A DNA stretch of 64,000 bases from NCBI GenBank assembly GCA_963514005.1, contig OY740799.1:31062001-31126000 (forward strand). Direction: 5' to 3'. Below the pieces are notes generated by a model that worked only from the letters and a program-made list of their open reading frames with translations, ran no database searches and was not told where the DNA came from. Source of the stretch: Raja brachyura (Eukaryota). The translations under genes were made by a program, and so were the position numbers. This document shows, in pieces, positions 10,257-63,576 of the stretch (positions within the stretch are counted from its first letter, which is position 1; every line of letters starts with the position of its first letter).

Positions 10257-13200
10257 CTGATGTAGTGCTGGTGGTGGTCTCAGTTGTTGGTGTTGTTTCT
10301 AGTGAAAGAAAAGATTGCTCTATTCAAGTGGGGCAGCCAAGAGAATTGGAACGCAGATATGAAGCCATCAACAGGAATTCATCAACTGGCATATTTTATG
10401 AAAACGTTTTACTAGTTGTCACTTTCTTCATCAGTGAATAAACCATGCGGCCATACTATACGGCTGCATTACTTTTTCCTTGTCTTTGAGAAATTGCATC
10501 TGATCAGGCATCTAGAAATATTGATTTGGCACAGCTGTGCAGCTGGTAGAGCTGCAGCCTCATAGTGTCATAGATTTGTATTCTATCCTAACCTCGGGTG
10601 CTGTCAGGGCTGGGATTGCACGTTCTCCCTTTCACTACCTGTGATCCCCCCAAGTTTTTAACAGAGGATGATACTGACCTGATGGAGTGGTGGTCCCAGA
10701 TGTTGATGTAGTTGTTTCTAGTGAAATAAAAAAATGTTATGTTCCACTGAGACAAACAAGAGGAATAGTTATGCGGTTTAGAATCCTCCAACAGGAATTT
10801 ATCAACTGGCACCTTTTAATAAGAAATTTTACACTTGATCTTTACTTATCAGTGAATATAGCGTATGGCCATACTATGCTGCTGCATTACTTTTTCCTTG
10901 TCAATCAGCTGCTGAATGTCAGGGCCACCACAAATAATTCCAACTTCTTAATGTACCAACTTCAGATTTTGTGGAAGCTCAGCAAGTATTCCAAGAACTA
11001 CTGATCATAAATTTACAACATAAGCAGCGGTAAAGTGCCACAACTGTTGCAACTCCTACCTCACAGCACCAGAGACTTCAGATTGATTTGTTCCGTGGGT
11101 GCTGTGTGCATGGAGATTACATGTACTCCCTGTTATGTGTGCCTTTCCTACATGTGTGTGAAATATATTGTCACTAACCTGATGTAGTACTGGTAGTGGT
11201 CTCTGTTGTTGATGTAGTTGTTGGTGTTTCTAGTGAAAGAAAATAATGCAATATTCAACCAGGACAGCCAAGAGGAATTGGTACATAGCTAACTATTGGT
11301 AGTCAGGAAACCATCAGCAGGAATTCATATGGTGGCACACTTAATTGAAATGTTGAACAGAAGGCATTTTTGTTCTTCACAGAATAAAATTGTAGGGAAA
11401 ATATAATTTTGATCAATCAGAAGCTGAATATTTCAGTGCCATCACAAATAATTCTGTTCTATCTATACACCAGTTGCAGATTTCCTGGAAGATCAACCAT
11501 CTTCCAAAGACTGCAAGGTCTACTTAATACCATCATTTCCGATAGTATGTACTGTGTGTACTATGGGTAAGCATGTCTGTTCATATGCCCCATTGATACA
11601 TGATTATCAACTTGCATAAATTGTGTTCATTATAATCATGTTTTTGATTTTTACTATGGAATGGCCGTAGAAATTGAGAAGCAGAAAACACCAACTCATT
11701 TCCTCCACAAATCCAAACTATTTTGAAATTGTGACATAATTTGGTAGAATTGTTATGAGTCAAACATTGACATCTTAACATGTATATTTGCACAATTTAT
11801 GCCAATAATTTAAGCAAAGATGCAAGAAGTAAGTCACAGAGCTGATGTTAGAAATGTTGTCTCATTGTCTTCGATTTGCCAATGTTTATTGAAAGTGGTT
11901 TGACTCACCTGTTGTGGAACTGGAGGTAGTCTCAGTTGTTCCAGTTGTCAAAGATGTTGTTGGTGTTGTTCCTGGAGAGCAAATAGAAAAGAATTTACAA
12001 ATTGAATTGCAAGAGTCACCAATCAATTTCAGTACGACACTGTACATTTTCAAAAGACTGGGCTGAATTTTAACAATGTTCATTGCTTGTGCCTATGCAA
12101 AGGACATTTATTAGTAAACCAAATTTTGTTTCGTCATTTATCAAATGCACCGAAATTATAAATAGACATTGTGATTTTTAGAAGAAAGTTCTAAACTCCT
12201 TCGTTGATCAACTTTGGAACCATCATTGAGCAGAAACAAAACTGTTTAACAGCGCTGCCATGACCAAAAACTCCCGGAATAGTGGAGGAGGCGAAGGGAA
12301 GAGACCTTTTCTAAAAAGTGAAAATCCTTATCCATGTCAACTGAAAAGTGCAGATTTAATGCTCTTTTTGAAATTATTGTAGGCAACCAGCACCAAAAGG
12401 CCTCATTAATTTGGTATTTACTTCTATATTTTCGTGGTGAGAAACTACATTTTTGGAATAAAGCAATGAACAAATATTCATGAAGAGGGTGCGATATGGA
12501 GCTTCACTAAACAAAGCACCGAATCCAAAAGGAAAAGTTAACAAGATTGATAGATGATGTTACTAACCTGATGTAGTGCTGGTGGTGGTCTCAGTTGTTG
12601 GTGTCGTTTCTAGTGAAAGAAAAGATTGCTCTATTCAAGTGGGGCAGCCAAGAGGAATTGGTACTCAGTTATAAAGCCATCAACAGGAATTCATGAGCTG
12701 GCACATTTCATGAAAGTGTTTTAATATGTAGATTGGTTACTTCTTACTAATATGCGAAGATAAACTGCTCAGCAACAACAGACTGTATCCCCCGCAGCCG
12801 CTCCATGGCGTTCTGCACCCAGCACGCTTATTTCACCACCTCCAATCGGTGTGTCTCCGGTGCCATCCCCGGTCACTTCCCCGTCACTTTATCGATTAAT
12901 TGAATAAAGCGTGCGATCATACTATGGGCTGCATTACTTTTTACTTGTCAATCAGCGGCTGAATAATTCAGGGTCATCATGAACAATTTCAATTTCTTAA
13001 TGTACCAACTTCAGATTTTGTGGAAGCTCAGCAGTATTCTAAGACCTATTGATCAGAAATTTAGAACATAAGGAGCGGTAAAGTGCCACAACTGGCGCAA
13101 CTCCTACCTCACAGCACCAGAGACATCAGATTGATTTGTTCCGTGGGTGCTGTGTACATGGAGATGACATGCCCTCCCTGTTATGTGTTGCTTTCCTACA

Positions 13201-16200
13201 AGTATCTGAAATATATTTCACTAACCTGATGTGGTGCTGGTAGTGGTCTCTGTTGTTGATGTAGTTGTTGGTGTTCCTAGTGAAAGAAAATAAAGCAATA
13301 TTTAACCAAGACAGCCAAGAGGAATTGGTATACAGCTAACTATTGGTAGTCAGGAAACCATCAGCAGCAATTCATATGCTGGTACACTTTATTAAAATGT
13401 TTAACAGATGACATTTTTGTTCAACCTAGAATAAAATGGCAAGGCAAAATATACTTTTGATAAATCAGCAGCTGAATATTTCAGTGCAATCACAACTAAT
13501 CCTGTTCTATCTATACACCAGTTGCGGATTTCCTGGAAGATCAACCGTCTTCCAAAGACTGCAAGGTCTACTTAATACCATATTTTATAATACCATTATT
13601 CGTGGATCCATTTTTGAAAAATCTTTGAGCTGAAACAAAACTGTTTAACTGCGTTGCCATGACCAAAAACTACAGGAATAGTGGAAGAGGCGAAGGGAAG
13701 AGACCTTTTCTATAAAAGTGAAAATCCTTATCCATGTCTGCTGAAAGGTGCCAGACTCAATTCTCTTTTTAAAATTATGGCAGGCAATCAGCAACAAATG
13801 GCCTCCTCAATTCGGTAGTTGTTTCTATATTTTCATGGTGAGAAACTACATTTTTTGAATAAAGCAATGAACAAATATTCCTGAAGAGGGGGCTATATAG
13901 AGCTTCACTAAACAAAGCACAGAGTCCAAAAGGAAACGCTAACAAGATTGATAGATGATGTTGCTAACCTGATGTAGTGCTGGTAGTGGTCTCAGTTGTT
14001 GGTGTCGTTTCTAGTGAAAGAAAAGATTGCTCTATTCAAGTGGGGCAGCCAAGAGAATTGGTACGCAGTTATAAAGCCATCAACAGGAATTCATGAGCTG
14101 GCACATTTTATGAAAGTGTTTTCATGTGTAGTTTGGTTGCTTCTTACTAATATGCAAAGATAAACTGCTCAGCAACAACAGACTGTGTCCCCCGTGGCCT
14201 CTCCACGGCGTTCTGCGCCCAGCACGCTTATTTCACCACCTCGCCGGTCACTTTCCCGGACACTTCACCGGTGAATTCCCCATCACTTTACCGATTAATT
14301 GAATAAAGCGTGCGGCCATACTATACGGCTGCATTACTTTTTCCTTGTCAATCAGCAGCTGAATATTTCAGGGCCATCATAAACAATTTCAATTTCTTAA
14401 TGTACCAACTTCAGATTTTGTGGAAGCTCAGCAAGTATTCCAAGAACTACTGATCAGAAATGTCGAACATAAGGAGCGGTAAAGTGCCAAAACTGTTGCA
14501 ACTCCTACCTCACAGCACCAGAGACATCAGATTGATTTGTTCCGTGGGTGTTGTGTGCATGGAGATGACATGTCCTCCCTGTTATGTGTGGCTTTCCTAC
14601 AAATGTCTGAAATATATTGTCACTAACCTGATGTAGTACTGGTAGTGGTCTCAGTTATTGATGTAGTTGTTGGTGTTCCTGGTGAAAGAAAATAACGCAA
14701 TATTCAACCAAGACGGCAAGAGGAATTGGTACACAGCTAACTATTGGCAGTCAAGAAACCATCAGAAGGAATTCATAGGCTGGCACGCATTATTAAAAAT
14801 TTTAACAGATGGCATTTTTGTTCTTCGTAGAATAAAATGACAGAGCAAAATATATTTGATCAATCAGCAGCTGAATATTTCTGTGCCATCACAAATAAAC
14901 CTGTTCTGACTATACATCAGTTACGGATATCCTGGAAGATTACCGTCTTCCAAAGACCTCAAAATCACCATGTTGTCCAATACCATTATTTGTTGAACCA
15001 TGTTTGAAAAATCTTTGAGCTGAAACAAAACTGTTTAACAGCGTTGCCATGACAAAAAAACTCCCGGAAATCTGGAGGAGGCGAAGGGAAGAGACCTTTT
15101 CTAAAAAGCGAAAATCCTTATCCATGTCAACTGAAAAATGCCAGATTTAATGCTGTTTGTGAGATTATTGTAGGCAACCAGCACCAAAAGGCCTCCTTAA
15201 TTTGGTAGTTGTTTCTATATTTTTGTGGTGAGAAACTACATTTTTGGAATAAAACAATGAACAAATATTCATGAAGAGGGGGCTATATAGAGCTTCACTA
15301 AACAAAGCACAGAGTCCAAAAGGAAAAGCTAACAAGATTGATAGATGATGATACTAACCTGATGTAGTGCTGGTGGTGGTCTCAGTTGTTGGTGTTGTTT
15401 CTAGTGAAAGAAAAGATTGCTCTATTCAAGTGGGGCAGCCAAGAGAATTGGAACGCAGATATGAAGCCATCAACAGGAATTCATCAACTGGCATATTTTA
15501 TGAAAACGTTTTACTAGTTGTCACTTTCTTCATCAGTGAATAAACCATGCGGCCATACTATACGGCTGCATTACTTTTTCCTTGTCTTTGAGAAATTGCA
15601 TCTGATCAGGCATCTAGAAATATTGATTTGGCACAGCTGTGCAGCTGGTAGAGCTGCAGCCTCATAGTGTCATAGATTTGTATTCTATCCTAACCTCGGG
15701 TGCTGTCAGGGCTGGGATTGCACGTTCTCCCTTTCACTACCTGTGATCCCCCCAAGTTTTTAACAGAGGATGATACTGACCTGATGTAGTGGTGGTCCCA
15801 GATGTTGATGTAGTTGTTTCTAGTGAAATAAAAAAATGTTATGTTCCACTGAGACAAACAAGAGGAATTGTTATGCAGTTTAGAATCCTCCAACAGGAAT
15901 TTATCAACTGGCACCTTTTAATAAGAAATTTTACACTTGATCTTTCCTTATCAGTGAATATAGCGTATGGCCATACTATGCTGCTGCATTACTTTTTCCT
16001 TGTCAATCAGCTGCTGAATGTCAGGACCACCACAAATAATTACAACTTCTTAATGTACCAACTTCAGATTTTGTGGAAGCTCAGCAAGTATTCCAAGAAC
16101 TACTGATAATAAATTTACAACATAAGCAGCGGTAAAGTGCCACAACTGTTGCAACTCCTACCTCACAGCACCAGAGACGTCAGATTGATTTGTTCCGTGG

Positions 16201-19200
16201 GTGCTGTGTGCAAGGAGATTACATGTACTCCCTGTTATATGTGCCTTTCCTACATGTGTGTGAAATATATTGTCACTAACCTGATGTAGTACTGGTAGTG
16301 GTCTCTGTTGTTGATGTAGTTGTTGGTGTTTCTAGTGAAAGAAAATAATGCAATATTCAACCAGGACAGCCAAGAGGAATTGGTACATAGCTAACTATTG
16401 GTAGTCAGGAAACCATCAGCAGGAATTCATATGGTGGCACACTTAATTGAAATGTTGAACAGAAGGCATTTTTGTTCTTCACAGAATAAAATTGTAGGGA
16501 AAATATAATTTTGATCAATCAGAAGCTGAATATTTCAGTGCCATCACAAATAATTCTGTTCTATCTATACACCAGTTGCAGATTTCCTGGAAGATCAACC
16601 ATCTTCCAAAGACTGCAAGGTCTACTTAATACCATCATTTCCGATAGTATGTACTGTGTGTACTATGGGTAAGCATGTCTGTTCATATGCCCCATTGATA
16701 CATGATTATCAACTTGCATAAATTGTGTTCATTATAATCATGTTTTTGATTTTTGCTATGGAATGGCCGTAGAAATTGAGAAGCAGAAAACACCAACTCA
16801 TTTCCTCCACAAATCCAAACTATTTTGAAATTGTGACATAATTTGGTAGAATTGTTATGAGTCAAACATTGACATCTTAACATGTATATTTGCACAATTT
16901 ATGCCAATAATTTAAGCAAAGATGCAAGAAGTAAGTCACAGAGCTGATGTTAGAAATGTTGTCTCATTGTCTTCGATTTGCCAATGTTTATTGAAAGTGG
17001 TTTGACTCACCTGTTGTGGAACTGGAGGTAGTCTCAGTTGTTCCAGTTGTCAAAGATGTTGTTGGTGTTGTTCCTGGAGAGCAAATAGAAAAGAATTTAC
17101 AAATTGAATTGCAAGAGTCACCAATCAATTTCAGTACGACACTGTACATTTTCAAAAGACTGGGCTGAATTTTAACAATGTTCATTGCTTGTGCCTATGC
17201 AAAGGACATTTATTAGTAAACCAAATTTTGTTTCGTCATTTATCAAATGCACCGAAATTATAAATAGACATTGTGATTTTTAGAAGAAAGTTCTAAACTC
17301 CTTCGTTGATCAACTTTGGAACCATCATTGAGCAGAAACAAAACTGTTTAACAGCGCTGCCATGACCAAAAACTCCCGGAATAGTGGAGGAGGCGAAGGG
17401 AAGAGACCTTTTCTAAAAAGTGAAAATCCTTATCCATGTCAACTGAAAAGTGCAGATTTAATGCTCTTTTTGAAATTATTGTAGGCAACCAGCACCAAAA
17501 GGCCTCATTAATTTGGTATTTACTTCTATATTTTCGTGGTGAGAAACTACATTTTTGGAATAAAGCAATGCACAAATATTCATGAAGAGGGTGCGATATG
17601 GAGCTTCACTAAACAAAGCACCGAATCCAAAAGGAAAAGTTTACAAGATTGATAGATGATGTTACTAACCTGATGTAGTGCTGGTGGTGGTCTCAGTTGT
17701 TGGTGTCGTTTCTAGTGAAAGAAAAGATTGCTCTATTCAAGTGGGGCAGCCAAGAGGAATTGGTACTCAGTTATAAAGCCATCAACAGGAATTCATGAGC
17801 TGGCACATTTCATGAAAGTGTTTTAATATGTAGATTGGTTACTTCTTACTAATATGCGAAGATAAACTGCTCAGCAACAACAGACTGTATCCCCCGCAGC
17901 CGCTCCATGGCGTTCTGCACCCAGCAAGCTTATTTCACCACCTCCAATCGGTGTGTCTCCAGTGCCATCCCCGGTCACTTCCCCGTCACTTTATCGATTA
18001 ATTGAATAAAGCGTGCGATCATACTATGGGCTGCATTACTTTTTACTTGTCAATCAGCGGCTGAATAATTCAGGGTCATCATGAACAATTTCAATTTCTT
18101 AATATACCAACTTCAGATTTTGTGGAAGCTCAGCAGTATTCTAAGACCTATTGATCAGAAATTTAGAACATAAGGAGCGGTAAAGTGCCACAACTGGCGC
18201 AACTCCTACCTCACAGCACCAGAGACATCAGATTGATTTGTTCCGTGGGTGCTGTGTACATGGAGATGACATGCCCTCCCTGTTATGTGTTGCTTTCCTA
18301 CAAGTATCTGAAATATATTTCACTAACCTGATGTGGTGCTGGTAGTGGTCTCTGTTGTTGATGTAGTTGTTGGTGTTCCTAGTGAAAGAAAATAAAGCAA
18401 TATTTAACCAAGACAGCCAAGAGGAATTGGTATACAGCTAACTATTGGTAGTCAGGAAACCATCAGCAGCAATTCATATGCTGGTACACTTTATTAAAAT
18501 GTTTAACAGATGACATTTTTGTTCAACCTAGAATAAAATGGCAAGGCAAAATATACTTTTGATAAATCAGCAGCTGAATATTTCAGTGCAATCACAACTA
18601 ATCCTGTTCTATCTATACACCAGTTGCGGATTTCCTGGAAGATCAACCGTCTTCCAAAGACTGCAAGGTCTACTTAATACCATATTTTATAATACCATTA
18701 TTCGTGGATCCATTTTTGAAAAATCTTTGAGCTGAAACAAAACTGTTTAACTGCGTTGCCATGACCAAAAACTACAGGAATAGTGGAAGAGGCGAAGGGA
18801 AGAGACCTTTTCTATAAAAGTGAAAATCCTTATCCATGTCTGCTGAAAGGTGCCAGACTCAATTCTCTTTTTAAAATTATGGCAGGCAATCAGCAACAAA
18901 TGGCCTCCTCAATTCGGTAGTTGTTTCTATATTTTCATGGTGAGAAACTACATTTTTTGAATAAAGCAATGAACAAATATTCCTGAAGAGGGGGCTATAT
19001 AGAGCTTCACTAAACAAAGCACAGAGTCCAAAAGGAAACGCTAACAAGATTGATAGATGATGTTACTAACCTGATGTAGTGCTGGTAGTGGTCTCAGTTG
19101 TTGGTGTCGTTTCTAGTGAAAGAAAAGATTGCTCTATTCAAGTGGGGCAGCCAAGAGAATTGGTACGCAGTTATAAAGCCATCAACAGGAATTCATGAGC

Positions 19201-22200
19201 TGGCACATTTTATGAAAGTGTTTTCATGTGTAGTTTGGTTGCTTCTTACTAATATGCAAAGATAAACTGCTCAGCAACAACAGACTGTGTCCCCCGTGGC
19301 CTCTCCACGGCGTTCTGCGCCCAGCACGCTTATTTCACCACCTCGCCGGTCACTTTCCTGGACACTTCACCGGTGAATTCCCCATCACGTTACCGATTAA
19401 TTGAATAAAGCGTGCGGCCATACTATACGGCTGCATTACTTTTTCCTTGTCAATCAGCAGCTGAATATTTCAGGGCCATCATAAACAATTTCAATTTCTT
19501 AATGTACCAACTTCAGATTTTGTGGAAGCTCAGCAAGTATTCCAAGAACTACTGATCAGAAATGTCGAACATAAGGAGCGGTAAAGTGCCAAAACTGTTG
19601 CAACTCCTACCTCACAGCACCAGAGACATCAGATTGATTTGTTCCGTGGGTGTTGTGTGCATAGAGATGACATGTCCTCCCTGTTATGTGTGGCTTTCCT
19701 ACAAATGTCTGAAATATATTGTCACTAACCTGATGTAGTACTGGTAGTGGTCTCAGTTATTGATGTAGTTGTTGGTGTTCCTGGTGAAAGAAAATAACGC
19801 AATATTCAACCAAGACGGCAAGAGGAATTGGTACACAGCTAACTATTGGCAGTCAAGAAACCATCAGAAGGAATTCATAGGCTGGCACGCATTATTAAAA
19901 ATTTTAACAGATGGCATTTTTGTTCTTCGTAGAATAAAATGACAGAGCAAAATATATTTGATCAATCAGCAGCTGAATATTTCTGTGCCATCACAAATAA
20001 ACCTGTTCTGACTATACATCAGTTACGGATATCCTGGAAGATTACCGTCTTCCAAAGACCTCAAAATCACCATGTTGTCCAATACCATTATTTGTTGAAC
20101 CATGTTTGAAAAATCTTTGAGCTGAAACAAAACTGTTTAACAGCGTTGCCATGACAAAAAAACTCCCGGAAATCTGGAGGAGGCGAAGGGAAGAGACCTT
20201 TTCTAAAAAGCGAAAATCCTTATCCATGTCAACTGAAAAATGCCAGATTTAATGCTGTTTGTGAGATTATTGTAGGCAACCAGCACCAAAAGGCCTCCTT
20301 AATTTGGTAGTTGTTTCTATATTTTTGTGGTGAGAAACTACATTTTTGGAATAAAACAATGAACAAATATTCATGAAGAGGGGGCTATATAGAGCTTCAC
20401 TAAACAAAGCACAGAGTCCAAAAGGAAAAGCTAACAAGATTGATAGATGATGATACTAACCTGATGTAGTGCTGGTGGTGGTCTCAGTTGTTGGTGTTGT
20501 TTCTAGTGAAAGAAAAGATTGCTCTATTCAAGTGGGGCAGCCAAGAGAATTGGAACGCAGATATGAAGCCATCAACAGGAATTCATCAACTGGCATATTT
20601 TATGAAAACGTTTTACTAGTTGTCACTTTCTTCATCAGTGAATAAACCATGTGGCCATACTATACGGCTGCATTACTTTTTCCTTGTCTTTGAGAAATTG
20701 CATTTGATCAGGCATCTAGAAATATTGATTTGGCACAGCTGTGCAGCTGGTAGAGCTGCAGCCTCATAGTGTCATAGATTTGTATTCTATCCTAACCTCG
20801 GGTGCTGTCAGGGCTGGGATTGCACGTTCTCCCTTTCACTACCTGTGATCCCCCCAAGTTTTTAACAGAGGATGATACTGACCTGATGTAGTGGTGGTCC
20901 CAGATGTTGATGTAGTTGTTTCTAGTGAAATAAAAAAATGTTATGTTCCACTGAGACAAACAAGAGGAATTGTTATGCGGTTTAGAATCCTCCAACAGGA
21001 ATTTATCAACTGGCACCTTTTAATAAGAAATTTTACACTTGATCTTTACTTATCAGTGAATATAGCGTATGGCCATACTATGCTGCTGCATTACTTTTTC
21101 CTTGTCAATCAGCTGCTGAATGTCAGGGCCACCACAAATAATTCCAACTTCTTAATGTACCAACTTCAGATTTTGTGGAAGCTCAGCAAGTATTCCAAGA
21201 ACTACTGATCATAAATTTACAACATAAGCAGCGGTAAAGTGCCACAACTGTTGCAACTCCTACCTCACAGCACCAGAGACTTCAGATTGATTTGTTCCGT
21301 GGGTGCTGTGTGCATGGAGATTACATGTACTCCCTGTTGTGTGTGCCTTTCCTACATGTGTGTGAAATATATTGTCACTAACCTGATGTAGTACTGGTAG
21401 TGGTCTCTGTTGTTGATGTAGTTGTTGGTGTTTCTAGTGAAAGAAAATAATGCAATATTCAACCAGGACAGCCAAGAGGAATTGGTACATAGCTAACTAT
21501 TGGTAGTCAGGAAACCATCAGCAGGAATTCATATGGTGGCACACTTAATTGAAATGTTGAACAGAAGGCATTTTTGTTCTTCACAGAATAAAATTGTAGG
21601 GAAAATATAATTTTGATCAATCAGAAGCTGAATATTTCAGTGCCATCACAAATAATTCTGTTCTATCTATACACCAGTTGCAGATTTCCTGGAAGATCAA
21701 CCATCTTCCAAAGACTGCAAGGTCTACTTAATACCATCATTTCCGATAGTATGTACTGTGTGTACTATGGGTAAGCATGTCTGTTCATATGCCCCATTGA
21801 TACATGATTATCAACTTGCATAAATTGTGTTCATTATAATCATGTTTTTGATTTTTGCTATGGAATGGCCGTAGAAATTGAGAAGCAGAAAACACCAACT
21901 CATTTCCTCCACAAATCCAAACTATTTTGAAATTGTGACAAAATTTGGTAGAATTGTTATGAGTCAAACATTGACATCTTAACATGTATATTTGCACAAT
22001 TTATGCCAATAATTTAAGCAAAGATGCAAGAAGTAAGTCACAGAGCTGATGTTAGAAATGTTGTCTCATTGTCTTCGATTTGCCAATGTTTATTGAAAGT
22101 GGTTTGACTCACCTGTTGTGGAACTGGAGGTAGTCTCAGTTGTTCCAGTTGTCAAAGATGTTGTTGGTGTTGTTCCTGGAGAGCAAATAGAAAAGAATTT

Positions 22201-25200
22201 ACAAATTGAATTGCAAGAGTCACCAATCAATTTCAGTACGACACTGTACATTTTCAAAAGACTGGGCTGAATTTTAACAATGTTCATTGCTTGTGCCTAT
22301 GCAAAGGACATTTATTAGTAAACCAAATTTTGTTTCGTCATTTATCAAATGCACCGAAATTATAAATAGACATTGTGATTTTTAGAAGAAAGTTCTAAAC
22401 TCCTTCGTTGATCAACTTTGGAACCATCATTGAGCAGAAACAAAACTGTTTAACAGCGCTGCCATGACCAAAAACTCCCGGAATAGTGGAGGAGGCGAAG
22501 GGAAGAGACCTTTTCTAAAAAGTGAAAATCCTTATCCATGTCAACTGAAAAGTGCAGATTTAATGCTCTTTTTGAAATTATTGTAGGCAACCAGCACCAA
22601 AAGGCCTCATTAATTTGGTATTTACTTCTATATTTTCGTGGTGAGAAACTACATTTTTGGAATAAAGCAATGAACAAATATTCATGAAGAGGGTGCGATA
22701 TGGAGCTTCACTAAACAAAGCACCGAATCCAAAAGGAAAAGTTAACAAGATTGATAGATGATGTTACTAACCTGATGTAGTGCTGGTGGTGGTCTCAGTT
22801 GTTGGTGTCGTTTCTAGTGAAAGAAAAGATTGCTCTATTCAAGTGGGGCAGCCAAGAGGAATTGGTACTCAGTTATAAAGCCATCAACAGGAATTCATGA
22901 GCTGGCACATTTCATGAAAGTGTTTTAATATGTAGATTGGTTACTTCTTACTAATATGCGAAGATAAACTGCTCAGCAACAACAGACTGTATCCCCCGCA
23001 GCCGCTCCATGGCGTTCTGCACCCAGCAAGCTTATTTCACCACCTCCAATCGGTGTGTCTCCAGTGCCATCCCCGGTCACTTCCCCGTCACTTTATCGAT
23101 TAATTGAATAAAGCATGCGATCATACTATGGGCTGCATTACTTTTTACTTGTCAATCAGCGGCTGAATAATTCAGGGTCATCATGAACAATTTCAATTTC
23201 TTAATATACCAACTTCAGATTTTGTGGAAGCTCAGCAGTATTCTAAGACCTATTGATCAGAAATTTAGAACATAAGGAGCGGTAAAGTGCCACAACTGGC
23301 GCAACTCCTACCTCACAGCACCAGAGACATCAGATTGATTTGTTCCGTGGGTGCTGTGTACATGGAGATGACATGCCCTCCCTGTTATGTGTTGCTTTCC
23401 TACAAGTATCTGAAATATATTTCACTAACCTGATGTGGTGCTGGTAGTGGTCTCTGTTGTTGATGTAGTTGTTGGTGTTCCTAGTGAAAGAAAATAAAGC
23501 AATATTTAACCAAGACAGCCAAGAGGAATTGGTATACAGCTAACTATTGGTAGTCAGGAAACCATCAGCAGCAATTCATATGCTGGTACACTTTATTAAA
23601 ATGTTTAACAGATGACATTTTTGTTCAACCTAGAATAAAATGGCAAGGCAAAATATACTTTTGATAAATCAGCAGCTGAATATTTCAGTGCAATCACAAC
23701 TAATCCTGTTCTATCTATACACCAGTTGCGGATTTCCTGGAAGATCAACCGTCTTCCAAAGACTGCAAGGTCTACTTAATACCATATTTTATAATACCAT
23801 TATTCGTGGATCCATTTTTGAAAAATCTTTGAGCTGAAACAAAACTGTTTAACTGCGTTGCCATGACCAAAAACTACAGGAATAGTGGAAGAGGCGAAGG
23901 GAAGAGACCTTTTCTGTAAAAGTGAAAATCCTTATCCATGTCTGCTGAAAGGTGCCAGACTCAATTCTCTTTTTTAAATTATGGCAGGCAATCAGCAACA
24001 AATGGCCTCCTCAATTCGGTAGTTGTTTCTATATTTTCATGGTGAGAAACTACATTTTTTGAATAAAGCAATGAACAAATATTCCTGAAGAGGGGGCTAT
24101 ATAGAGCTTCACTAAACAAAGCACAGAGTCCAAAAGGAAACGCTAACAAGATTGATAGATGATGTTACTAACCTGATGTAGTGCTGGTGGTGGTCTCAGT
24201 TGTTGGTGTTGTTTCTAGTGAAAGAAAAGATTGCTCTATTCAAGTGGGGCAGCCAAGAGAATTGGTACGCAGTTATAAAGCCATCAACAGGAATTCATGA
24301 GCTGGCACATTTTATGAAAGTGTTTTCATGTGTAGTTTGGTTGCTTCTTACTAATATGCAAAGATAAACTGCTCAGCAACAACAGACTGTGTCCCCCGTG
24401 GCCTCTCCACGGCGTTCTGCGCCCAGCACGCTTATTTCACCACCTCGCCGGTCACTTTCCCGGACACTTCACCGGTGAATTCCCCATCACTTTACCGATT
24501 AATTGAATAAAGCGTGCGGCCATACTATACGGCTGCATTACTTTTTCCTTGTCAATCAGCAGCTGAATATTTCAGGGCCATCATAAACAATTTCAATTTC
24601 TTAATGTACCAACTTCAGATTTTGTGGAAGCTCAGCAAGTATTCCAAGAACTACTGATCAGAAATGTCGAACATAAGGAGCGGTAAAGTGCCAAAACTGT
24701 TGCAACTCCTACCTCACAGCACCAGAGACATCAGATTGATTTGTTCCGTGGGTGTTGTGTGCATGGAGATGACATGTCCTCCCTGTTATGTGTGGCTTTC
24801 CTACAAATGTCTGAAATATATTGTCACTAACCTGATGTAGTACTGGTAGTGGTCTCAGTTATTGATGTAGTTGTTGGTGTTCCTGGTGAAAGAAAATAAC
24901 GCAATATTCAACCAAGACGGCAAGAGGAATTGGTACACAGCTAACTATTGGCAGTCAAGAAACCATCAGAAGGAATTCATAGGCTGGCACGCATTATTAA
25001 AAATTTTAACAGATGGCATTTTTGTTCTTCGTAGAATAAAATGACAGAGCAAAATATATTTGATCAATCAGCAGCTGAATATTTCTGTGCCATCACAAAT
25101 AAACCTGTTCTGACTATACATCAGTTACGGATATCCTGGAAGATTACCGTCTTCCAAAGACCTCAAAATCACCATGTTGTCCAATACCATTATTTGTTGA

Positions 25201-28200
25201 ACCATGTTTGAAAAATCTTTGAGCTGAAACAAAACTGTTTAACAGCGTTGCCATGACAAAAAAACTCCCGGAAATCTGGAGGAGGCGAAGGGAAGAGACC
25301 TTTTCTAAAAAGCGAAAATCCTTATCCATGTCAACTGAAAAATGCCAGATTTAATGCTGTTTGTGAGATTATTGTAGGCAACCAGCACCAAAAGGCCTCC
25401 TTAATTTGGTAGTTGTTTCTATATTTTTGTGGTGAGAAACTACATTTTTGGAATAAAACAATGAACAAATATTCATGAAGAGGGGGCTATATAGAGCTTC
25501 ACTAAACAAAGCACAGAGTCCAAAAGGAAAAGCTAACAAGATTGATAGATGATGATACTAACCTGATGTAGTGCTGGTGGTGGTCTCAGTTGTTGCTGTT
25601 GTTTCTAGTGAAAGAAAAGATTGCTCTATTCAAGTGGGGCAGCCAAGAGAATTGGAACGCAGATATGAAGCCATCAACAGGAATTCATCAACTGGCATAT
25701 TTTATGAAAACGTTTTACTAGTTGTCACTTTCTTCATCAGTGAATAAACCATGCGGCCATACTATACGGCTGCATTACTTTTTCCTTGTCTTTGAGAAAT
25801 TGCATCTGATCAGGCATCTAGAAATATTGATTTGGCACAGCTGTGCAGCTGGTAGAGCTGCAGCCTCATAGTGTCATAGATTTGTATTCTATCCTAACCT
25901 CGGGTGCTGTCAGGGCTGGGATTGCACGTTCTCCCTTTCACTACCTGTGATCCCCCCAAGTTTTTAACAGAGGATGATACTGACCTGATGTAGTGGTGGT
26001 CCCAGATGTTGATGTAGTTGTTTCTAGTGAAATAAAAAAATGTTATGTTCCACTGAGACAAACAAGAGGAATTGTTATGCGGTTTAGAATCCTCCAACAG
26101 GAATTTATCAACTGGCACCTTTTAATAAGAAATTTTACACTTGATCTTTACTTATCAGTGAATATAGCGTATGGCCATACTATGCTGCTGCATTACTTTT
26201 TCCTTGTCAATCAGCTGCTGAATGTCAGGGCCACCACAAATAATTCCAACTTCTTAATGTACCAACTTCAGATTTTGTGGAAGCTCAGCAAGTATTCCAA
26301 GAACTACTGATCATAAATTTACAACATAAGCAGCGGTAAAGTGCCACAACTGTTGCAACTCCTACCTCACAGCACCAGAGACTTCAGATTGATTTGTTCC
26401 GTGGGTGCTGTGTGCATGGAGATTACATGTACTCCCTGTTATGTGTGCCTTTCCTACATGTGTGTGAAATATATTGTCACTAACCTGATGTAGTACTGGT
26501 AGTGGTCTCTGTTGTTGATGTAGTTGTTGGTGTTTCTAGTGAAAGAAAATAATGCAATATTCAACCAGGACAGCCAAGAGGAATTGGTACATAGCTAACT
26601 ATTGGTAGTCAGGAAACCATCAGCAGGAATTCATATGGTGGCACACTTAATTGAAATGTTGAACAGAAGGCATTTTTGTTCTTCACAGAATAAAATTGTA
26701 GGGAAAATATAATTTTGATCAATCAGAAGCTGAATATTTCAGTGCCATCACAAATAATTCTGTTCTATCTATACACCAGTTGCAGATTTCCTGGAAGATC
26801 AACCATCTTCCAAAGACTGCAAGGTCTACTTAATACCATCATTTCCGATAGTATGTACTGTGTGTACTATGGGTAAGCATGTCTGTTCATATGCCCCATT
26901 GATACATGATTATCAACTTGCATAAATTGTGTTCATTATAATCATGTTTTTGATTTTTGCTATGGAATGGCCGTAGAAATTGAGAAGCAGAAAACACCAA
27001 CTCATTTCCTCCACAAATCCAAACTATTTTGAAATTGTGACAAAATTTGGTAGAATTGTTATGAGTCAAACATTGACATCTTAACATGTATATTTGCACA
27101 ATTTATGCCAATAATTTAAGCAAAGATGCAAGAAGTAAGTCACAGAGCTGATGTTAGAAATGTTGTCTCATTGTCTTCGATTTGCCAATGTTTATTGAAA
27201 GTGGTTTGACTCACCTGTTGTGGAACTGGAGGTAGTCTCAGTTGTTCCAGTTGTCAAAGATGTTGTTGGTGTTGTTCCTGGAGAGCAAATAGAAAAGAAT
27301 TTACAAATTGAATTGCAAGAGTCACCAATCAATTTCAGTACGACACTGTACATTTTCAAAAGACTGGGCTGAATTTTAACAATGTTCATTGCTTGTGCCT
27401 ATGCAAAGGACATTTATTAGTAAACCAAATTTTGTTTCGTCATTTATCAAATGCACCGAAATTATAAATAGACATTGTGATTTTTAGAAGAAAGTTCTAA
27501 ACTCCTTCGTTGATCAACTTTGGAACCATCATTGAGCAGAAACAAAACTGTTTAACAGCGCTGCCATGACCAAAAACTCCCGGAATAGTGGAGGAGGCGA
27601 AGGGAAGAGACCTTTTCTAAAAAGTGAAAATCCTTATCCATGTCAACTGAAAAGTGCAGATTTAATGCTCTTTTTGAAATTATTGTAGGCAACCAGCACC
27701 AAAAGGCCTCATGAATTTGGTATTTACTTCTATATTTTCGTGGTGAGAAACTACATTTTTGGAATAAAGCAATGAACAAATATTCATGAAGAGGGTGCGA
27801 TATGGAGCTTCACTAAACAAAGCACAGAATCCAAAAGGAAAAGTTAACAAGATTGATAGATGATGTTACTAACCTGATGTAGTGCTGGTGGTGGTCTCAG
27901 TTGTTGGTGTCGTTTCTAGTGAAAGAAAAGATTGCTCTATTCAAGTGGGGCAGCCAAGAGGAATTGGTACTCAGTTATAAAGCCATCAACAGGAATTCAT
28001 GAGCTGGCACATTTCATGAAAGTGTTTTAATATGTAGATTGGTTACTTCTTACTAATATGCGAAGATAAACTGCTCAGCAACAACAGACTGTATCCCCCG
28101 CAGCCGCTCCATGGCGTTCTGCACCCAGCACGCTTATTTCACCACCTCCAATCGGTGTGTCTCCGGTGCCATCCCCGGTCACTTCCCCGTCACTTTATCG

Positions 28201-58200: not shown

Positions 58201-61200
58201 TACCAACTTCAGATTTTGTGGAAGCTCAGCAGTATTCTAAGACCTATTGATCAGAAATTTAGAACATAAGGAGCGGTAAAGTGCCACAACTGGCGCAACT
58301 CCTACCTCACAGCACCAGAGACATCAGATTGATTTGTTCCGTGGGTGCTGTGTACATGGAGATGACATGCCCTCCCTGTTATGTGTTGCTTTCCTACAAG
58401 TATCTGAAATATATTTCACTAACCTGATGTGGTGCTGGTAGTGGTCTCTGTTGTTGATGTAGTTGTTGGTGTTCCTAGTGAAAGAAAATAAAGCAATATT
58501 TAACCAAGACAGCCAAGAGGAATTGGTATACAGCTAACTATTGGTAGTCAGGAAACCATCAGCAGCAATTCATATGCTGGTACACTTTATTAAAATGTTT
58601 AACAGATGACATTTTTGTTCAACCTAGAATAAAATGGCAAGGCAAAATATACTTTTGATAAATCAGCAGCTGAATATTTCAGTGCAATCACAAATAATCC
58701 TGTTCTATCTATACACCAGTTGCGGATTTCCTGGAAGATCAACCGTCTTCCAAAGACTGCAAGGTCTACTTAATACCATATTTTATAATACCATTATTCG
58801 TGGATCCATTTTTGAAAAATCTTTGAGCTGAAACAAAACTGTTTAACTGCGTTGCCATGACCAAAAACTACAGGAATAGTGGAAGAGGCGAAGGGAAGAG
58901 ACCTTTTCTATAAAAGTGAAAATCCTTATCCATGTCTGCTGAAAGGTGCCAGACTCAATTCTCTTTTTAAAATTATGGCAGGCAATCAGCAACAAATGGC
59001 CTCCTCAATTCGGTAGTTGTTTCTATATTTTCATGGTGAGAAACTACATTTTTTGAATAAAGCAATGAACAAATATTCCTGAAGAGGGGGCTATATAGAG
59101 CTTCACTAAACAAAGCACAGAGTCCAAAAGTAAACGCTAACAAGATTGATAGATGATGTTACTAACCTGATGTAGTGCTGGTAGTGGTCTCAGTTGTTGG
59201 TGTAGTTTCTAGTGAAAGAAAAGATTGCTCTATTCAAGTGGGGCAGCCAAGAGAATTGGTACGCAGTTATAAAGCCATCAACAGGAATTCATGAGCTGGC
59301 ACATTTTATGAAAGTGTTTTCATGTGTAGTTTGGTTGCTTCTTACAAATATGCAAAGATAAACTGCTCAGCAACAACAGACTGTGTCCCCCGTGGCCTCT
59401 CCACGGCGTTCTGCGCCCAGCACGCTTATTTCACCACCTCGCCGGTCACTTTCCCGGACACTTCACCGGTGAATTCCCCATCACTTTACCGATTAATTGA
59501 ATAAAGCGTGCGGCCATACTATACGGCTGCATTACTTTTTCCTTGTCAATCAGCAGCTGAATATTTCAGGGCCATCATAAACAATTTCAATTTCTTAATG
59601 TACCAACTTCAGATTTTGTGGAAGCTCAGCAAGTATTCCAAGAACTACTGATCAGAAATGTCGAACATAAGGAGCGGTAAAGTGCCAAAACTGTTGCAAC
59701 TCCTACCTCACAGCACCAGAGACATCAGATTGATTTGTTCCGTGGGTGTTGTGTGCATGGAGATGACATGTCCTCCCTGTTATGTGTGGCTTTCCTACAA
59801 ATGTCTGAAATATATTGTCACTGACCTGATATAGTACTGGTAGTGGTCTCAGTTATTGATGTAGTTGTTGGTGTTCCTGGTGAAAGAAAATAACGCAATA
59901 TTCAACCAAGACGGCAAGAGGAATTGGTACACAGCTAACTATTGGCAGTCAAGAAACCATCAGAAGGAATTCATAGGCTGGCACGCATTATTAAAAATTT
60001 TAACAGATGGCATTTTTGTTCTTCGTAGAATAAAATGACAGAGCAAAATATATTTGATCAATCAGCAGCTGAATATTTCTGTGCCATCACAAATAAACCT
60101 GTTCTGACTATACATCAGTTACGGATATCCTGGAAGATTACCGTCTTCCAAAGACCTCAAAATCACCATGTTGTCCAATACCATTATTTGTTGAACCATG
60201 TTTGAAAAATCTTTGAGCTGAAACAAAACTGTTTGACAGCGTTGCCATGACAAAAAAACTCCCGGAATAGTGGAAGAGGCGAAGGGAAGAGACCTTTTCT
60301 AAAAAGCGAAAATCCTTATCCATGTCAACTGAAAAATGCCAGATTTAATGCTGTTTGTGAAATTATTGTAGGCAACCAGCACCAAAAGGCCTCCTTAATT
60401 TGGTAGTTGTTTCTATATTTTTGTGGTGAGAAACTACATTTTTGGAATAAAACAATGAACAAATATTCATGAAGAGGGGGCTATATAGAGCTTCACTAAA
60501 CAAAGCACAGAGTCCAAAAGGAAAAGCTAACAAGATTGATAGATGATGATACTAACCTGATGTAGTGCTGGTGGTGGTCTCAGTTGTTGGTGTTGTTTCT
60601 AGTGAAAGAAAAGATTGCTCTATTCAAGTGGGGCAGCCAAGAGAATTGGAACGCAGATATGAAGCCATCAACAGGAATTCATCAACTGGCATATTTTATG
60701 AAAACGTTTTACTAGTTGTCACTTTCTTCATCAGTGAATAAACCATGCGGCCATACTATACGGCTGCATTACTTTTTCCTTGTCTTTGAGAAATTGCATC
60801 TGATCAGGCATCTAGAAAGATTGATTTGGCACAGCTGTGCAGCTGGTAGAGCTGCAGCCTCATAGTGTCATAGATTTGTATTCTATCCTAACCTTAGGTG
60901 CTGTCAGGGCTGGGATTGCACGTTCTCCCATTCACTACCTGTGATCCCCCCAAGTTTTTAACAGAGGATGATACTGACCTGATGTAGTGGTGGTCCCAGA
61001 TGTTGATGTAGTTGTTTCTAGTGAAATAAAAAAATGTTATGTTCCACTGAGACAAACAAGAGGAATAGTTATGCGGTTTAGAATCCTCCAACAGGAATTT
61101 ATCAACTGGCACCTTTTAATAAGAAATTTTACACTTGATCTTGACTTATCAGTGAATATAGCATATGGCCATACTATGCTGCTGCATTACTTTTTCCTTG

Positions 61201-63576
61201 TCAATCAGCTGCTGAATGTCAGGGCCACCACAAATAATTCCAACTTCTTAATGTACCAACTTCAGATTTTGTGGAAGCTCAGCAAGTATTCCAAGAACTA
61301 CTGATCATAAATTTACAACATAAGCAGCGGTAAAGTGCCACAACTGTTGCAACTCCTACCTCACAGCACCAGAGACTTCAGATTGATTTGTTCCGTGGGT
61401 GCTGTGTGCATGGAGATTACATGTACTCCCTGTTATGTGTGCCTTTCCTACATGTGTGTGAAATATATTGTCACTAACCTGATGTAGTACTGGTAGTGGT
61501 CTCTGTTGTTGATGTAGTTGTTGGTGTTTCTAGTGAAAGAAAATAATGCAATATTCAACCAGGACAGCCAAGAGGAATTGGTACATAGCTAACTATTGGT
61601 AGTCAGGAAACCATCAGCAGGAATTCATATGGTGGCACACTTAATTGAAATGTTGAACAGAAGGCATTTTTGTTCTTCACAGAATAAAATTGTAGGGAAA
61701 ATATAATTTTGATCAATCAGAAGCTGAATATTTCAGTGCCATCACAAATAATTCTGTTCTATCTATACACCAGTTGCAGATTTCCTGGAAGATCAACCAT
61801 CTTCCAAAGACTGCAAGGTCTACTTAATACCATCATTTCCGATAGTATGTACTGTGTGTACTATGGGTAAGCATGTCTGTTCATATGCCCCATTGATACA
61901 TGATTATCAACTTGCATAAATTGTGTTCATTATAATCATGTTTTTGATTTTTACTATGGAATGGCCGTAGAAATTGAGAAGCAGAAAACACCAACTCATT
62001 TCCTCCACAAATCCAAACTATTTTGAAATTGTGACATAATTTGGTAGAATTGTTATGAGTCAAACATTGACATCTTAACATGTATATTTGCACAATTTAT
62101 GCCAATAATTTAAGCAAAGATGCAAGAAGTAAGTCACAGAGCTGATGTTAGAAATGTTGTCTCATTGTCTTCGATTTGCCAATGTTTATTGAAAGTGGTT
62201 TGACTCACCTGTTGTGGAACTGGAGGTAGTCTCAGTTGTTCCAGTTGTCAAAGATGTTGTTGGTGTTGTTCCTGGAGAGCAAATAGAAAAGAATTTACAA
62301 ATTGAATTGCAAGAGTCACCAATCAATTTCAGTACGACACTGTACATTTTCAAAAGACTGGGCTGAATTTTAACAATGTTCATTGCTTGTGCCTATGCAA
62401 AGGACATTTATTAGTAAACCAAATTTTGTTTCGTCATTTATCAAATGCACCGAAATTATAAATAGACATTGTGATTTTTAGAAGAAAGTTCTAAACTCCT
62501 TCGTTGATCAACTTTGGAACCATCATTGAGCAGAAACAAAACTGTTTAACAGCGCTGCCATGACCAAAAACTCCCGGAATAGTGGAGGAGGCGAAGGGAA
62601 GAGACCTTTTCTAAAAAGTGAAAATCCTTATCCATGTCAACTGAAAAGTGCAGATTTAATGCTCTTTTTGAAATTATTGTAGGCAACCAGCACCAAAAGG
62701 CCTCATTAATTTGGTATTTACTTCTATATTTTCGTGGTGAGAAACTACATTTTTGGAATAAAGCAATGAACAAATATTCATGAAGAGGGTGCGATATGGA
62801 GCTTCACTAAACAAAGCACCGAATCCAAAAGGAAAAGTTAACAAGATTGATAGATGATGTTACTAACCTGATGTAGTGCTGGTGGTGGTCTCAGTTGTTG
62901 GTGTCGTTTCTAGTGAAAGAAAAGATTGCTCTATTCAAGTGGGGCAGCCAAGAGGAATTGGTACTCAGTTATAAAGCCATCAACAGGAATTCATGAGCTG
63001 GCACATTTCATGAAAGTGTTTTAATATGTAGATTGGTTACTTCTTACTAATATGCGAAGATAAACTGCTCAGCAACAACAGACTGTATCCCCCGCAGCCG
63101 CTCCATGGCGTTCTGCACCCAGCACGCTTATTTCACCACCTCCAATCGGTGTGTCTCCGGTGCCATCCCCGGTCACTTCCCCGTCACTTTATCGATTAAT
63201 TGAATAAAGCGTGCGATCATACTATGGGCTGCATTACTTTTTACTTGTCAATCAGCGGCTGAATAATTCAGGGTCATCATGAACAATTTCAATTTCTTAA
63301 TATACCAACTTCAGATTTTGTGGAAGCTCAGCAGTATTCTAAGACCTATTGATCAGAAATTTAGAACATAAGGAGCGGTAAAGTGCCACAACTGGCGCAA
63401 CTCCTACCTCACAGCACCAGAGACATCAGATTGATTTGTTCCGTGGGTGCTGTGTACATGGAGATGACATGCCCTCCCTGTTATGTGTTGCTTTCCTACA
63501 AGTATCTGAAATATATTTCACTAACCTGATGTGGTGCTGGTAGTGGTCTCTGTTGTTGATGTAGTTGTTGGTGTTC
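153..63576 (-). CDS. Internal part of a mucin-like gene: Thr/Ser-rich PTS domain encoded by 93 symmetric micro-exons (~4440 nt, ~1480 aa in window); both ends lie outside the window
   Basis: A recurrent minus-strand cassette reads polypyrimidine-(C/T)AG | 39/42/51/63 nt | GTTAGT/GTCAGT/GTGAGT. All exons are phase 1-1, and I saw no stops or frameshifts. Spliced unit in transcription order: GTPTTTSITETTTSTTS-ETTPTTETTTSTTS-GTPTTTSTTETTTSTTS-ETTPTTETTTSTTS-GTTPTTSLTTGTTETTSSSTT-ETPTTTSTTETTTSTTS-ETTTSTSGTTTTS-ETTPTTETTTSTTS. The mucin call rests on composition only. Confidence 0.88.
10257..10298 (-). CDS. Micro-exon class A (42 nt): ETTPTTETTTSTTS
   Basis: ttttctttcactag|AAACAACACC...ACTACATCAG|gttagt. 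Copies start at 15359, 20461, 25563, 30665, 35767, 40856, 45958, 51060 and 60557. Confidence 0.88.
10528..10642 (+). mobile_element. Degenerate tRNA-derived SINE 5' fragment (V-SINE/HE1-like), one per unit; also at ~1893-2008
   Basis: GGCACAGCTGTGCAGCTGGTAGAGCTGCAGCCTCATAG...ATCCTAACCTCGGGTGCTGTC...TTGCACGTTCTCCC resembles the A-box head and start of the V-domain of shark/ray SINEs. This is recognised from memory, not from a search. Confidence 0.7.
10679..10717 (-). CDS. Micro-exon class C (39 nt): ETTTSTSGTTTTS (this copy ETTTSTSGTTTPS)
   Basis: ttttatttcactag|AAACAACTAC...ATCAG|gtcagt. Copies at 15781, 20883, 25985, 31087, 36189, 41278, 46380, 55877 and 60979. Confidence 0.85.
11027..11150 (+). 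mobile_element. Second, more degenerate V-SINE-like fragment, three per unit (also ~13075-13198 and ~14477-14599)
   Basis: CCTACCTCACAGCACCAGAGAC...GGGTGCTGTGTGCATGGAG...CATGTACTCCCTGT...TTTCCT is colinear with the recalled V-SINE consensus. Confidence 0.6.
11179..11229 (-). CDS. Micro-exon class D (51 nt): ETPTTTSTTETTTSTTS
   Basis: ttttctttcactag|AAACACCAAC...ACATCAG|gttagt. Copies at 16281, 21383, 26485, 31587, 36689, 41778, 46880, 56377 and 61479. Confidence 0.88.
11909..11971 (-). CDS. Micro-exon class E (63 nt): GTTPTTSLTTGTTETTSSSTT
   Basis: tatttgctctccag|GAACAACACC...ACAACAG|gtgagt, a consensus donor. The peptide is visible inside ORF 11886..12083. Copies at 17011, 22113, 27215, 32317, 37406, 42508, 47610, 57107 and 62209. 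Confidence 0.9.
12568..12609 (-). CDS. Micro-exon class A' (42 nt): ETTPTTETTTSTTS
   Basis: cactag|AAACGACACC...ACATCAG|gttagt. Copies at 17670, 22772, 27874, 32976, 38065, 43167, 48269, 57766 and 62868. Confidence 0.88.
13226..13276 (-). CDS. Micro-exon class B (51 nt): GTPTTTSTTETTTSTTS
   Basis: cactag|GAACACCAAC...CCACATCAG|gttagt. Copies at 18328, 23430, 28532, 33634, 38723, 43825, 48927, 58424 and 63526. Confidence 0.88.
13969..14010 (-). CDS. Micro-exon class A'' (42 nt): ETTPTTETTTSTTS
   Basis: cactag|AAACGACACC...ACATCAG|gttag(c/t). It differs from A' by a synonymous ACC/ACT in most copies. Copies at 19071, 24173, 29275, 34377, 39466, 44568, 49670 and 59167. Confidence 0.87.
14628..14678 (-). 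CDS. Micro-exon class F (51 nt): GTPTTTSITETTTSTTS
   Basis: ttttctttcaccag|GAACACCAAC...ACATCAG|gttagt. Copies at 19730, 24832, 29934, 35036, 40125, 45227, 50329 and 59826. Confidence 0.88.
51445..51462 (+). repeat. Target-site duplication, left copy (TGATCCCCCCAAGTTTTT)
   Basis: Identical to 55840-55857. Uninterrupted units contain this sequence only once. Confidence 0.95.
51475..51480 (-). terminator. Putative polyadenylation signal (AATAAA) of the L1
   Basis: The minus strand reads ...CAAATAAAAAAAAATATTAC|AAAAA, so AATAAA lies 12 nt before the element's 3' end. Confidence 0.6.
51712..51732. repeat. (AT)10 microsatellite in the L1 3' UTR
   Basis: Direct reading. Confidence 0.9.
51871..55659 (-). 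CDS. L1 ORF2 protein (APE endonuclease, reverse transcriptase, C-terminal CCHC), ~1262 aa from the first ATG
   Basis: Endonuclease motifs: SWNVKG, FLQETH, NIYAPN, GGDFN, SRIDY, SDH. RT motifs: GKTAGPDG, SLDAEKAFD, RQGCPLSP, YADD, YLGI. C-terminal CDKC-x8-H-x4-C. The track start at 55716 is a GTG; the first ATG is at 55659. Confidence 0.96.
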   Translation of the reverse strand: MQDMNVRNGDDGITFCSWNVKGINEPIKRGKVLAQLNRLKSGVMFLQETHLKKDAQYRLTAKWISKVYHSSFIHKSRGVAIIIRKGIPFKLNSLIEDKEGRYLIITGELHSKKVILMNIYAPNFDNPLFFKKIFNSIPISTQYNLIIGGDFNCTLDNYLDRSSTKIKALSKSSKLINSFSKTLNVKDIWRLDNPTGREYSFFSPVFGTYSRIDYFLVDSKLLPFTYDAKYHNIIISDHAPLTFKIKLKDMVNKTNIWRFNTQILKDKDCCNYVEKQIKLFFETNDKPETSSLLLWDTFKAFMRGAIISAQAHFNKENRKMEQKLEKEINQLDSENIIHPSKELSNKIAILKYRLNKIYADQVIKLYQQTKQVHFEFGDKPQKLLARQLRRLDDEKTIHSIRSAQGNTLTIPKDINDTFLQYYQNLYSSKLTGQTDEMETFLEKCHFNKLNFESRQLLNAEISVIDIEESIGSLKNGKTAGPDGLNAEFYKKFHDLLSPRLQTVYRHTYELGKLPDSLNESTITLIPKLDKDLEDPGSYRAIALLNTDQKILTKVLSRRLSLVISKIIHYDQTGFIPKRYSSHNLRRLFNIIYSRRRRDIELAVISLDAEKAFDQVEWSYLFNIMEKYQLGDGFCKWVRILYSNPTARILTNQILSPKFNLFRGCRQGCPLSPLLFALVIEPLAERIRSEPEIYGYNTDITNNKISLYADDILIYITKPERSIPKLFNVINEFSVFSGYRINWSKSDIMPITGINVNILQKYPLKIVTDKFKYLGINVSKSYKLLIKANYYQLLEKLKKNILYWKTLPISMIGRINAIKMIFLPQLLYLFQAIPFFLPKSFLKKIDTIVNNFVWDYKSHRIGKKHLCKSKINGGLALPNFLYYYWAVQIKNMNFWWVNMDVEPMWLKMEKEDCLPFTIESIIFAPKEVQKKTYRDNIIIHNIRRIWKQIVKTLHLDNLSFRLSIRNNPLFKPSILDAGFRLWEDLGIKRIEHLYRNGKLLLFEELQDIFGLPSQHHFRYLQIRDFIKCNTYDYKNKGPGLLDEVFNLHPNTDKLIAYIYNIILDKENPTTETYRQAWENEIGLPITKETWEESLQRIHWCSLNARHTLIQFKVIYRLHYSKTKLKSIFPNLSSICDKCKNFEANLIHSFVTCPRLNFYWIEIFKVISEVLKVKLDPDPKLIIFGIPEPNLVLTINQRNFFDYCLIIGKKMILKFWKGTLSPTIKMWKAEMLETLNLERIRFVLLDKYNSFELIWSPYIQYLEK
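55840..55857 (+). repeat. Target-site duplication, right copy
   Basis: Identical to 51445-51462. The 4395-bp offset equals the excess length of this unit. Confidence 0.95.

Follow-up and report, generated by a model that had tools for sequence, protein, structure and literature searches.

A 232-exon, frame-symmetric PTS array in a predicted MUC19-like mucin gene of Raja brachyura, probably built by duplication and mostly constitutively spliced

Mucin PTS length affects gel properties, and variation of this length by splicing was raised in 2006 for chicken Muc13, where it was proposed to occur within individuals (PMC1552070); the answers since then have been mixed. In Schistosoma mansoni, the repeat number of SmPoMuc transcripts is described as varying widely in cDNA (PMC2576457), and the Xenopus integumentary mucin FIM-C.1 is described, with reference to work of 1992, as polymorphic via alternative splicing (PMC7177656). 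On the other side, the account of chicken MUC2 characterises one PTS event and describes no massive alternative splicing on infection (PMC3549977), and for MucXS the account gives a long RT-PCR product that dominates (PMC5789918). Disordered proteins are reported to be encoded, in general, by genes built of symmetric exons, often via internal tandem duplication (PMC3632108), and three Muc19 paralogs have been described in Callorhinchus (PMC4948705). Our literature search, largely of openly accessible papers, found no published exon structure of an elasmobranch Muc19.

The stretch analysed here (the window; 64,000 nucleotides of Raja brachyura DNA, C19:31,062,001-31,126,000, in a genome of 2.70 Gb) contains a tandem array with a period of 5,102 bp. 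From about position 9,600 onward the copies are more than 99% identical, before it they are more diverged, and there is one 4.4-kb insertion. Every unit has eight minus-strand blocks, in each of which a pyrimidine tract and an AG precede 39-63 nt of coding sequence rich in Thr and Ser, with a GT donor after it. Between 10257 and 63576 these blocks amount to 78 predicted mini-exons, namely 29 of 42 nt, 29 of 51 nt, 10 of 39 nt and 10 of 63 nt. The class order given in the preliminary description, F-A''-B-A'-E-D-C-A, is correct and corresponds to 51-42-51-42-63-51-39-42 nt, or 381 nt and 127 aa per unit; its count of ten units holds for nine full ones, the tenth being represented by six exons. 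In the unit at 10257..15358, with introns of 380-692 nt, the minus-strand exons are F (14628..14678, 51 nt, phase 1-1), A'' (13969..14010, 42 nt, donor GTTAGC in this copy), B (13226..13276, 51 nt), A' (12568..12609, 42 nt), E (11909..11971, 63 nt, donor GTGAGT), D (11179..11229, 51 nt), C (10679..10717, 39 nt, donor GTCAGT) and A (10257..10298, 42 nt). The 18 young units are 96.9-99.9% identical, with a mean of 99.26%. Moreover, the array extends past the range first described: there are 93 exons in the window (153..63576, minus strand) and 232 overall, which span C19:31,201,612 to 31,038,435 and run past both window ends.

To judge from its sequence, the array belongs to a MUC19-like gel-forming mucin gene, here referred to as gene B, with MUC19 orthology resting on automatic names. 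Its upstream exons match the Pfam families VWD (five exons, four of them over the cut-off), TIL (twice) and C8 (once), and two downstream exons match Cys_knot with E-values of 0.015 and 8.8e-5, both just below the Pfam cut-off. All 16 protein matches of the D3 exon, among 21 candidates scored, are fish mucins, and the top 13 come from cartilaginous fishes at 61-74% identity; 11 of the 16 are named mucin-19-like or MUC19 and one mucin-6-like, while four bear no mucin name, all these names being automatic. The same exon matches structures of MUC5B, MUC5AC, MUC2 and VWF. Furthermore, the 29 N-terminal exons of the model align over about 1,165 aa to shark and ray mucins, and the D1-D2-D'D3 region is 58-74% identical to seven chondrichthyan proteins.

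Our hand-built model of gene B has 266 exons (29 + 232 + 5), with AG and GT at each of the internal splice sites and its only stop at the end. It is predicted to encode about 5,067 aa, comprising a signal peptide (a hydrophobic first exon, from a motif scan only), D1-D2-D'D3, a PTS domain of about 3,700 aa, a short Cys-rich stretch in which no Pfam match was found, and a cystine knot that is in frame with the PTS domain and followed by an in-frame path to the stop. The PTS domain consists of about 61% Thr, 17% Ser, 6% Pro and 9% Glu, and the earlier view of the product as a glycoprotein holds in the form of a predicted gel-forming mucin with a Thr/Ser-rich PTS domain. Phase 1 mucin exons also occur in membrane proteins such as CD45, CD164 and endomucin, which are ruled out here by the VWD and cystine-knot exons. 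In mammals, MUC19 is syntenic with LRRK2. In our LRRK2 check, COR-A matches lay on C36 and C3 only, among the best candidates, and no kinase motif turned up in the 864 kb analysed.

The preliminary description had stated that every exon ends in CAG, that almost all start with AA or GA, and that any donor-acceptor pairing consequently yields Glu or Gly and keeps the frame. In fact, all 78 exons end in CAG, have 3n length and phase 1-1, are preceded by AG and followed by GT, and contain no stop codon, these 78 being copies from one unit with 15 distinct sequences and hence not independent. As for the first bases, 77 exons start with AA (48) or GA (29), and the only TA-starting one (48269..48310, minus strand) gives Val at the junction with the frame kept. 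Among the 6,084 donor-acceptor pairs, 3,744 give Glu and 2,262 give Gly, so the statement on residues needs to be amended for 78 Val pairs; none of the pairs creates a stop, and the frame is kept for any pairing of canonical splice sites, to which the claim applies. At GTTAGT and GTCAGT donors a second, out-of-frame GT lies 4 nt further on. Upstream of the 42-nt exons there is a weaker AG, at a distance of 21 nt (in frame) or, in older units, 19 nt (out of frame). The junction residues follow from the usual G at exon ends together with the two bases with which the ancestral exon started. The claim that circles would be free of stops is also borne out, as a circle of the eight-exon unit is open in the coding frame; its other two frames carry two and five stops. 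No ATG was found in the repeated exons in any frame or across their junctions, and one of the 232 exons, the last and non-repeated one, has one.

We further scanned 864 kb blind to phase and length and obtained 396 PTS-rich exon candidates. All 389 minus-strand candidates in the three arrays are in phase 1-1, and the other seven include three on the plus strand within arrays and four outside arrays. In gene B, 232 of 232 array PTS exons are in phase 1-1, whereas among its 32 internal non-PTS exons only 11 are 3n long. The difference between 389 of 389 and 11 of 32 argues that the symmetry is not due to chance. Such symmetry is expected in any exon array grown by duplication, being a precondition for tandem exon duplication.

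Gene B is flanked upstream by paralog A (C19:31,369,000-31,557,000, L052-L072) and downstream by a 5'-truncated copy C (C19:30,893,000-30,997,100, L012-L022). Paralog A, which has 129 PTS exons and is 78% identical to gene B over 21 N-terminal matches, is laid out as D1-D3, a PTS region of about 27 exons, CysD-D4-C8-TIL, a second PTS region of 102 exons (mostly repeats of a six-exon, roughly 4,057-bp unit), another CysD-D4-C8-TIL block and a cystine knot. Copy C begins at the last D3 exon, with its splice sites intact, and continues with 28 PTS exons that differ in sequence, followed by CysD, D4 and a cystine knot. None of its earlier N-terminal exons was found in the 30 kb up to the end of gene B, and it represents either a duplicate that was truncated or a 3' half that gene B could use as an alternative.

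At the DNA level the symmetry can be seen at work on every scale between the single exon and the whole CysD-D4 module, in keeping with the general finding on genes for disordered proteins (PMC3632108). The CysD-D4-C8-TIL block starts and ends in phase 1; it is doubled in paralog A and deleted from gene B, where the breakpoint falls within the final TIL exon without loss of frame. Within the array, the 28 E-to-E intervals range from 3,779 to 9,497 bp and from 6 to 12 exons. Three array exons have lost their acceptor (L031:8091-8141, L035:2413-2451 and L026:9757-9798) and one exon is inverted, all without a frameshift. Between old and young units, exons differ at 7 of 381 positions and introns at 189 of 4,528 (P = 0.02), and this exon rate of under half the intron rate indicates that the array exons are constrained; the young units show no such difference, with 17/381 in exons and 219/4,533 in introns (P = 0.9). 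The 5,102-bp-type unit also occurs, at about 96-98% identity, in sequencing runs of two other organisms, a hint that each lineage homogenised it separately. The unit contigs in these runs have a depth of 8-20, against 3-7 for single-copy DNA in X4 and single-copy DNA that was not assembled in X5, these being rough values in which depth is not copy number.

We therefore regard it as probable, from the architecture described above, that the predicted PTS exons were multiplied by duplication and are mostly constitutive, with length changing at the DNA level and low-level skipping being tolerated. One ancestral phase 1-1 exon would have been duplicated into the 42-, 51-, 39- and 63-nt classes, and the eight-exon unit would next have been amplified and homogenised, likely through unequal crossing-over of exon-plus-intron units. 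The exons would mostly be spliced in genomic order to give one long O-glycosylated stalk, with length differences expected chiefly between alleles and species. In any one animal, low-level stochastic skipping of these short exons would be tolerated and would produce a narrow smear just below full length. Since only symmetric exons survive such copying, the property that any subset can be skipped is a footprint of this history and not proof of a splicing programme. Architecture alone does not decide the splicing mode either, as the symmetric-exon arrays of collagen helices are constitutively spliced, and titin PEVK and tropoelastin show alternative splicing.

Simple arithmetic helps to separate the number of isoforms from their range of lengths. 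With independent skipping, the coefficient of variation of length would be 0.67% at 1% per exon and 3.3% at 20%, and 1% skipping over 232 exons would leave only 9.7% of transcripts exactly full length. On this model many isoforms are cheap but a wide length range is not, so a very large range needs block skipping. Several considerations count against a mostly constitutive array, among them this small full-length share and the equal variation of exons and introns among young units. Short exons are harder to define, and all array exons measure 39-63 nt. An inverted segment close to the array's 5' end, described below, would provide a concrete route to multi-exon skipping. Finally, alternative exons are reported to be enriched for symmetry and disorder (PMC3632108).

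The preliminary description raised another reading, in which a substantial share of transcripts skips or repeats PTS exon blocks, so that one allele would give polydisperse mucins. We consider this unlikely. All canonical pairings are in frame, and the splice-site contexts are nearly identical across units, as had been noted, and would leave the spliceosome little to discriminate on. Precedents are described for SmPoMuc (PMC2576457) and the frog integumentary mucins (PMC7177656), and such splicing was proposed for chicken Muc13 (PMC1552070); in the accounts of chicken MUC2 (PMC3549977) and MucXS (PMC5789918), by contrast, little variation is described. The array donors are not weak: 225 of 228 agree with the U1 consensus in at least 8 of its 9 positions, the average for the gene's 33 other donors being 6.3, in a crude match count (not MaxEnt) that reflects a few ancestral sites and not 228 independent ones. 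Weak donors, which would be a sign of alternative splicing, were not seen in this count. A simple pattern search found the canonical branch-point motif absent in seven of the eight acceptors. A wide range would moreover require long-range block skipping, which co-transcriptional splicing of introns of 380-692 nt would disfavour. On the whole, the indirect signs, namely the U1 match and the exon constraint, lean to inclusion.

Four of the six listed sequencing runs (X1, X2, X4 and X5), placed on one unit and on the unique D2-D3 exons, showed even intron coverage, a pile-up on transposons and no splice joints, and none of the three joints seen is at a splice site; these runs therefore behave as DNA and carry no information on splicing. 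No isoform names occur among the eight protein clusters, which is uninformative on splicing. With 25 nt a side, 49 junctions can be distinguished, of which 15 join genomic neighbours and 34 are absent as neighbours in this assembly. The E-to-C junction is hard-wired in one unit, whose D exon is without AG (L031:8091-8141), and, in this allele, B-to-E is a diagnostic one. Short reads cannot reveal the skipping of whole units. Nor can circles be demonstrated here by counting junctions, because linear splicing into the next unit makes the same junction as a back-splice.

A more specific route to skipping may lie in the inverted segment. While no inverted repeats were found inside the window, a 577-bp segment at C19:31,193,160-31,193,736 (L035:7160-7736), near the 5' end of the array and six exons deep in the PTS region, consists of an E-type exon that has been inverted in place together with about 265 nt to either side, and it is the only inverted segment in the whole array. 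It is complementary to 29 segments of the same pre-mRNA, 28 of them downstream (12 in the window) and one upstream. The reverse-complementarity is 83-87% to 27 downstream copies, 91% to the 28th over 388 bp and 82% to the upstream one; one of the 12 window partners, an exon E segment with about 265 nt each side (11643..12238, minus strand), shows 86%. The predicted duplex energies are -763 kcal/mol for a typical partner, -712 for the nearest and -444 for the upstream one, against -116 to -157 for shuffled sequences (-156 over 5 base shuffles for the typical partner). If the segment paired with one of the 28 downstream E copies, it would mask that exon and loop out all exons between. Pairing with the k-th partner is predicted to remove from 83 to about 3,550 aa, always in frame and mostly in 127-aa steps.

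That the segment works in this way is, in our estimation, a long shot, and the same low expectation applies to its predicted outcome, a ladder of in-frame deletions in steps of about 127 aa that would also favour circles of the looped exons. Besides the high complementarity, the strong predicted duplex and the in-frame losses, the segment differs by 9-17% from all other copies and is therefore no assembly echo, and inverted intronic repeats are reported to promote skipping in primates (PMC13019944). However, any inverted copy would be expected to form a strong duplex, and the counterpart in paralog A, 91% identical, has the normal orientation, so the inversion is not conserved. Local pairing should win, because transcription reaches the upstream partner first and the nearest one downstream lies at a distance of 3.3 kb; captured Alu duplexes are likewise described as biased to short distances (PMC13019944). 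It is accordingly improbable that a single inverted unit copy serves as a docking arm, that is, as a length selector by competing RNA duplexes born of a local inversion. If it did, an inverted arm driving such a ladder would be a simple new way to graded isoforms.

It is very improbable that the array is silent or partly over-assembled and that the gene is not expressed at this length. In run X1 the contig depth is about 190-214 on the unit and about 9-16 on single-copy exons and introns, a rough 15-fold excess (depth not being copy number) that is lower than the 22-28 units assembled. This gap could reflect an allelic copy-number difference as well as an assembly effect. The retroelement on the sense strand, with its seven AATAAA motifs, could end transcripts early. 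Against this, the model is open from ATG to stop, the exons are constrained, the units differ by 0.1-3% with distinct indels, and the unit is multi-copy also in the runs of the two other organisms. The element itself is a non-LTR retrotransposon in the C-A intron of one unit (51463..55839, minus strand, the same strand as the mucin), with an open ORF of 1,262 codons (51871-55659) for endonuclease and reverse transcriptase. It appears young, with a target-site duplication of 17-18 bp and no separate ORF1 of at least 150 codons, and a 2.6-kb copy that is 99.8% identical lies at C19:31,646,788. The idea that back-splicing gives abundant stop-free circles translated into poly-PTS is hardly credible: the coding frame of the eight-exon circle is indeed without stop, but the other two frames are interrupted, the repeated exons and junctions offer no ATG, the window has no inverted matches, and a product without signal peptide would miss the secretory pathway.

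A mostly constitutive, duplication-built array can be placed among the known systems as follows. RefSeq proteins named mucin-19-like, from Mobula hypostoma, Rhincodon typus, Stegostoma tigrinum and others, have similar Thr/Ser/Glu repeats after D1-D2-D'D3. Four of these shark and ray models (P0002, P0005, P0007 and P0009) stop inside the PTS region, without a cystine knot, whereas the model of gene B reaches it; these database models apparently read into an intron after a phase 1 donor and are probably incomplete annotations. Gene B is without CysD and D4, both of which are kept by the neighbouring paralog A and copy C.

Further afield, chicken Muc13 is like gene B in having one PTS repeat per exon, but it is described as a transmembrane SEA mucin with at least 12 repeats, while gene B is a predicted secreted mucin with 232 exons and an eight-exon unit (PMC1552070). 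SmPoMuc is built of exon-plus-intron units of about 1 kb that are more than 94% identical and carry one small repeat exon each; as described, it differs in being an unrelated protein with one exon class per unit and at most 20 units, and in being known from cDNA, whereas gene B is known here from DNA alone (PMC2576457). The Xenopus mucins FIM-B.1 and MucXS are secreted mucins with VWD domains (PMC7177656), and X. tropicalis MucXS (PMC5789918) and chicken MUC2 (PMC3549977) have multi-exon PTS domains as gene B does. In the accounts of the frog integumentary mucins, MucXS and chicken MUC2, no inverted exon arm like that of gene B is seen. The predicted arm resembles instead the loop-out skipping described for Alu duplexes, in which a long intronic duplex encloses exons (PMC13019944). 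Unlike in the Alu case, the arm derives from an exon unit of gene B itself, as an inverted copy, and would have 28 partners in competition, each covering the splice sites of an exon. Among other genes, TBXT reportedly shows exon skipping by an inverted-repeat loop-out, and Joba and Hoffmann are said to have described cassette splicing of FIM-B.1 in 1996. Gene B offers an extreme and fully assembled test case, with 232 exons, four length classes and class-specific junctions, and is well suited to long-read RNA sequencing. The idea of length control by splicing has already been proposed for this gene class, in chicken Muc13, and what distinguishes gene B is its scale and the inverted arm.
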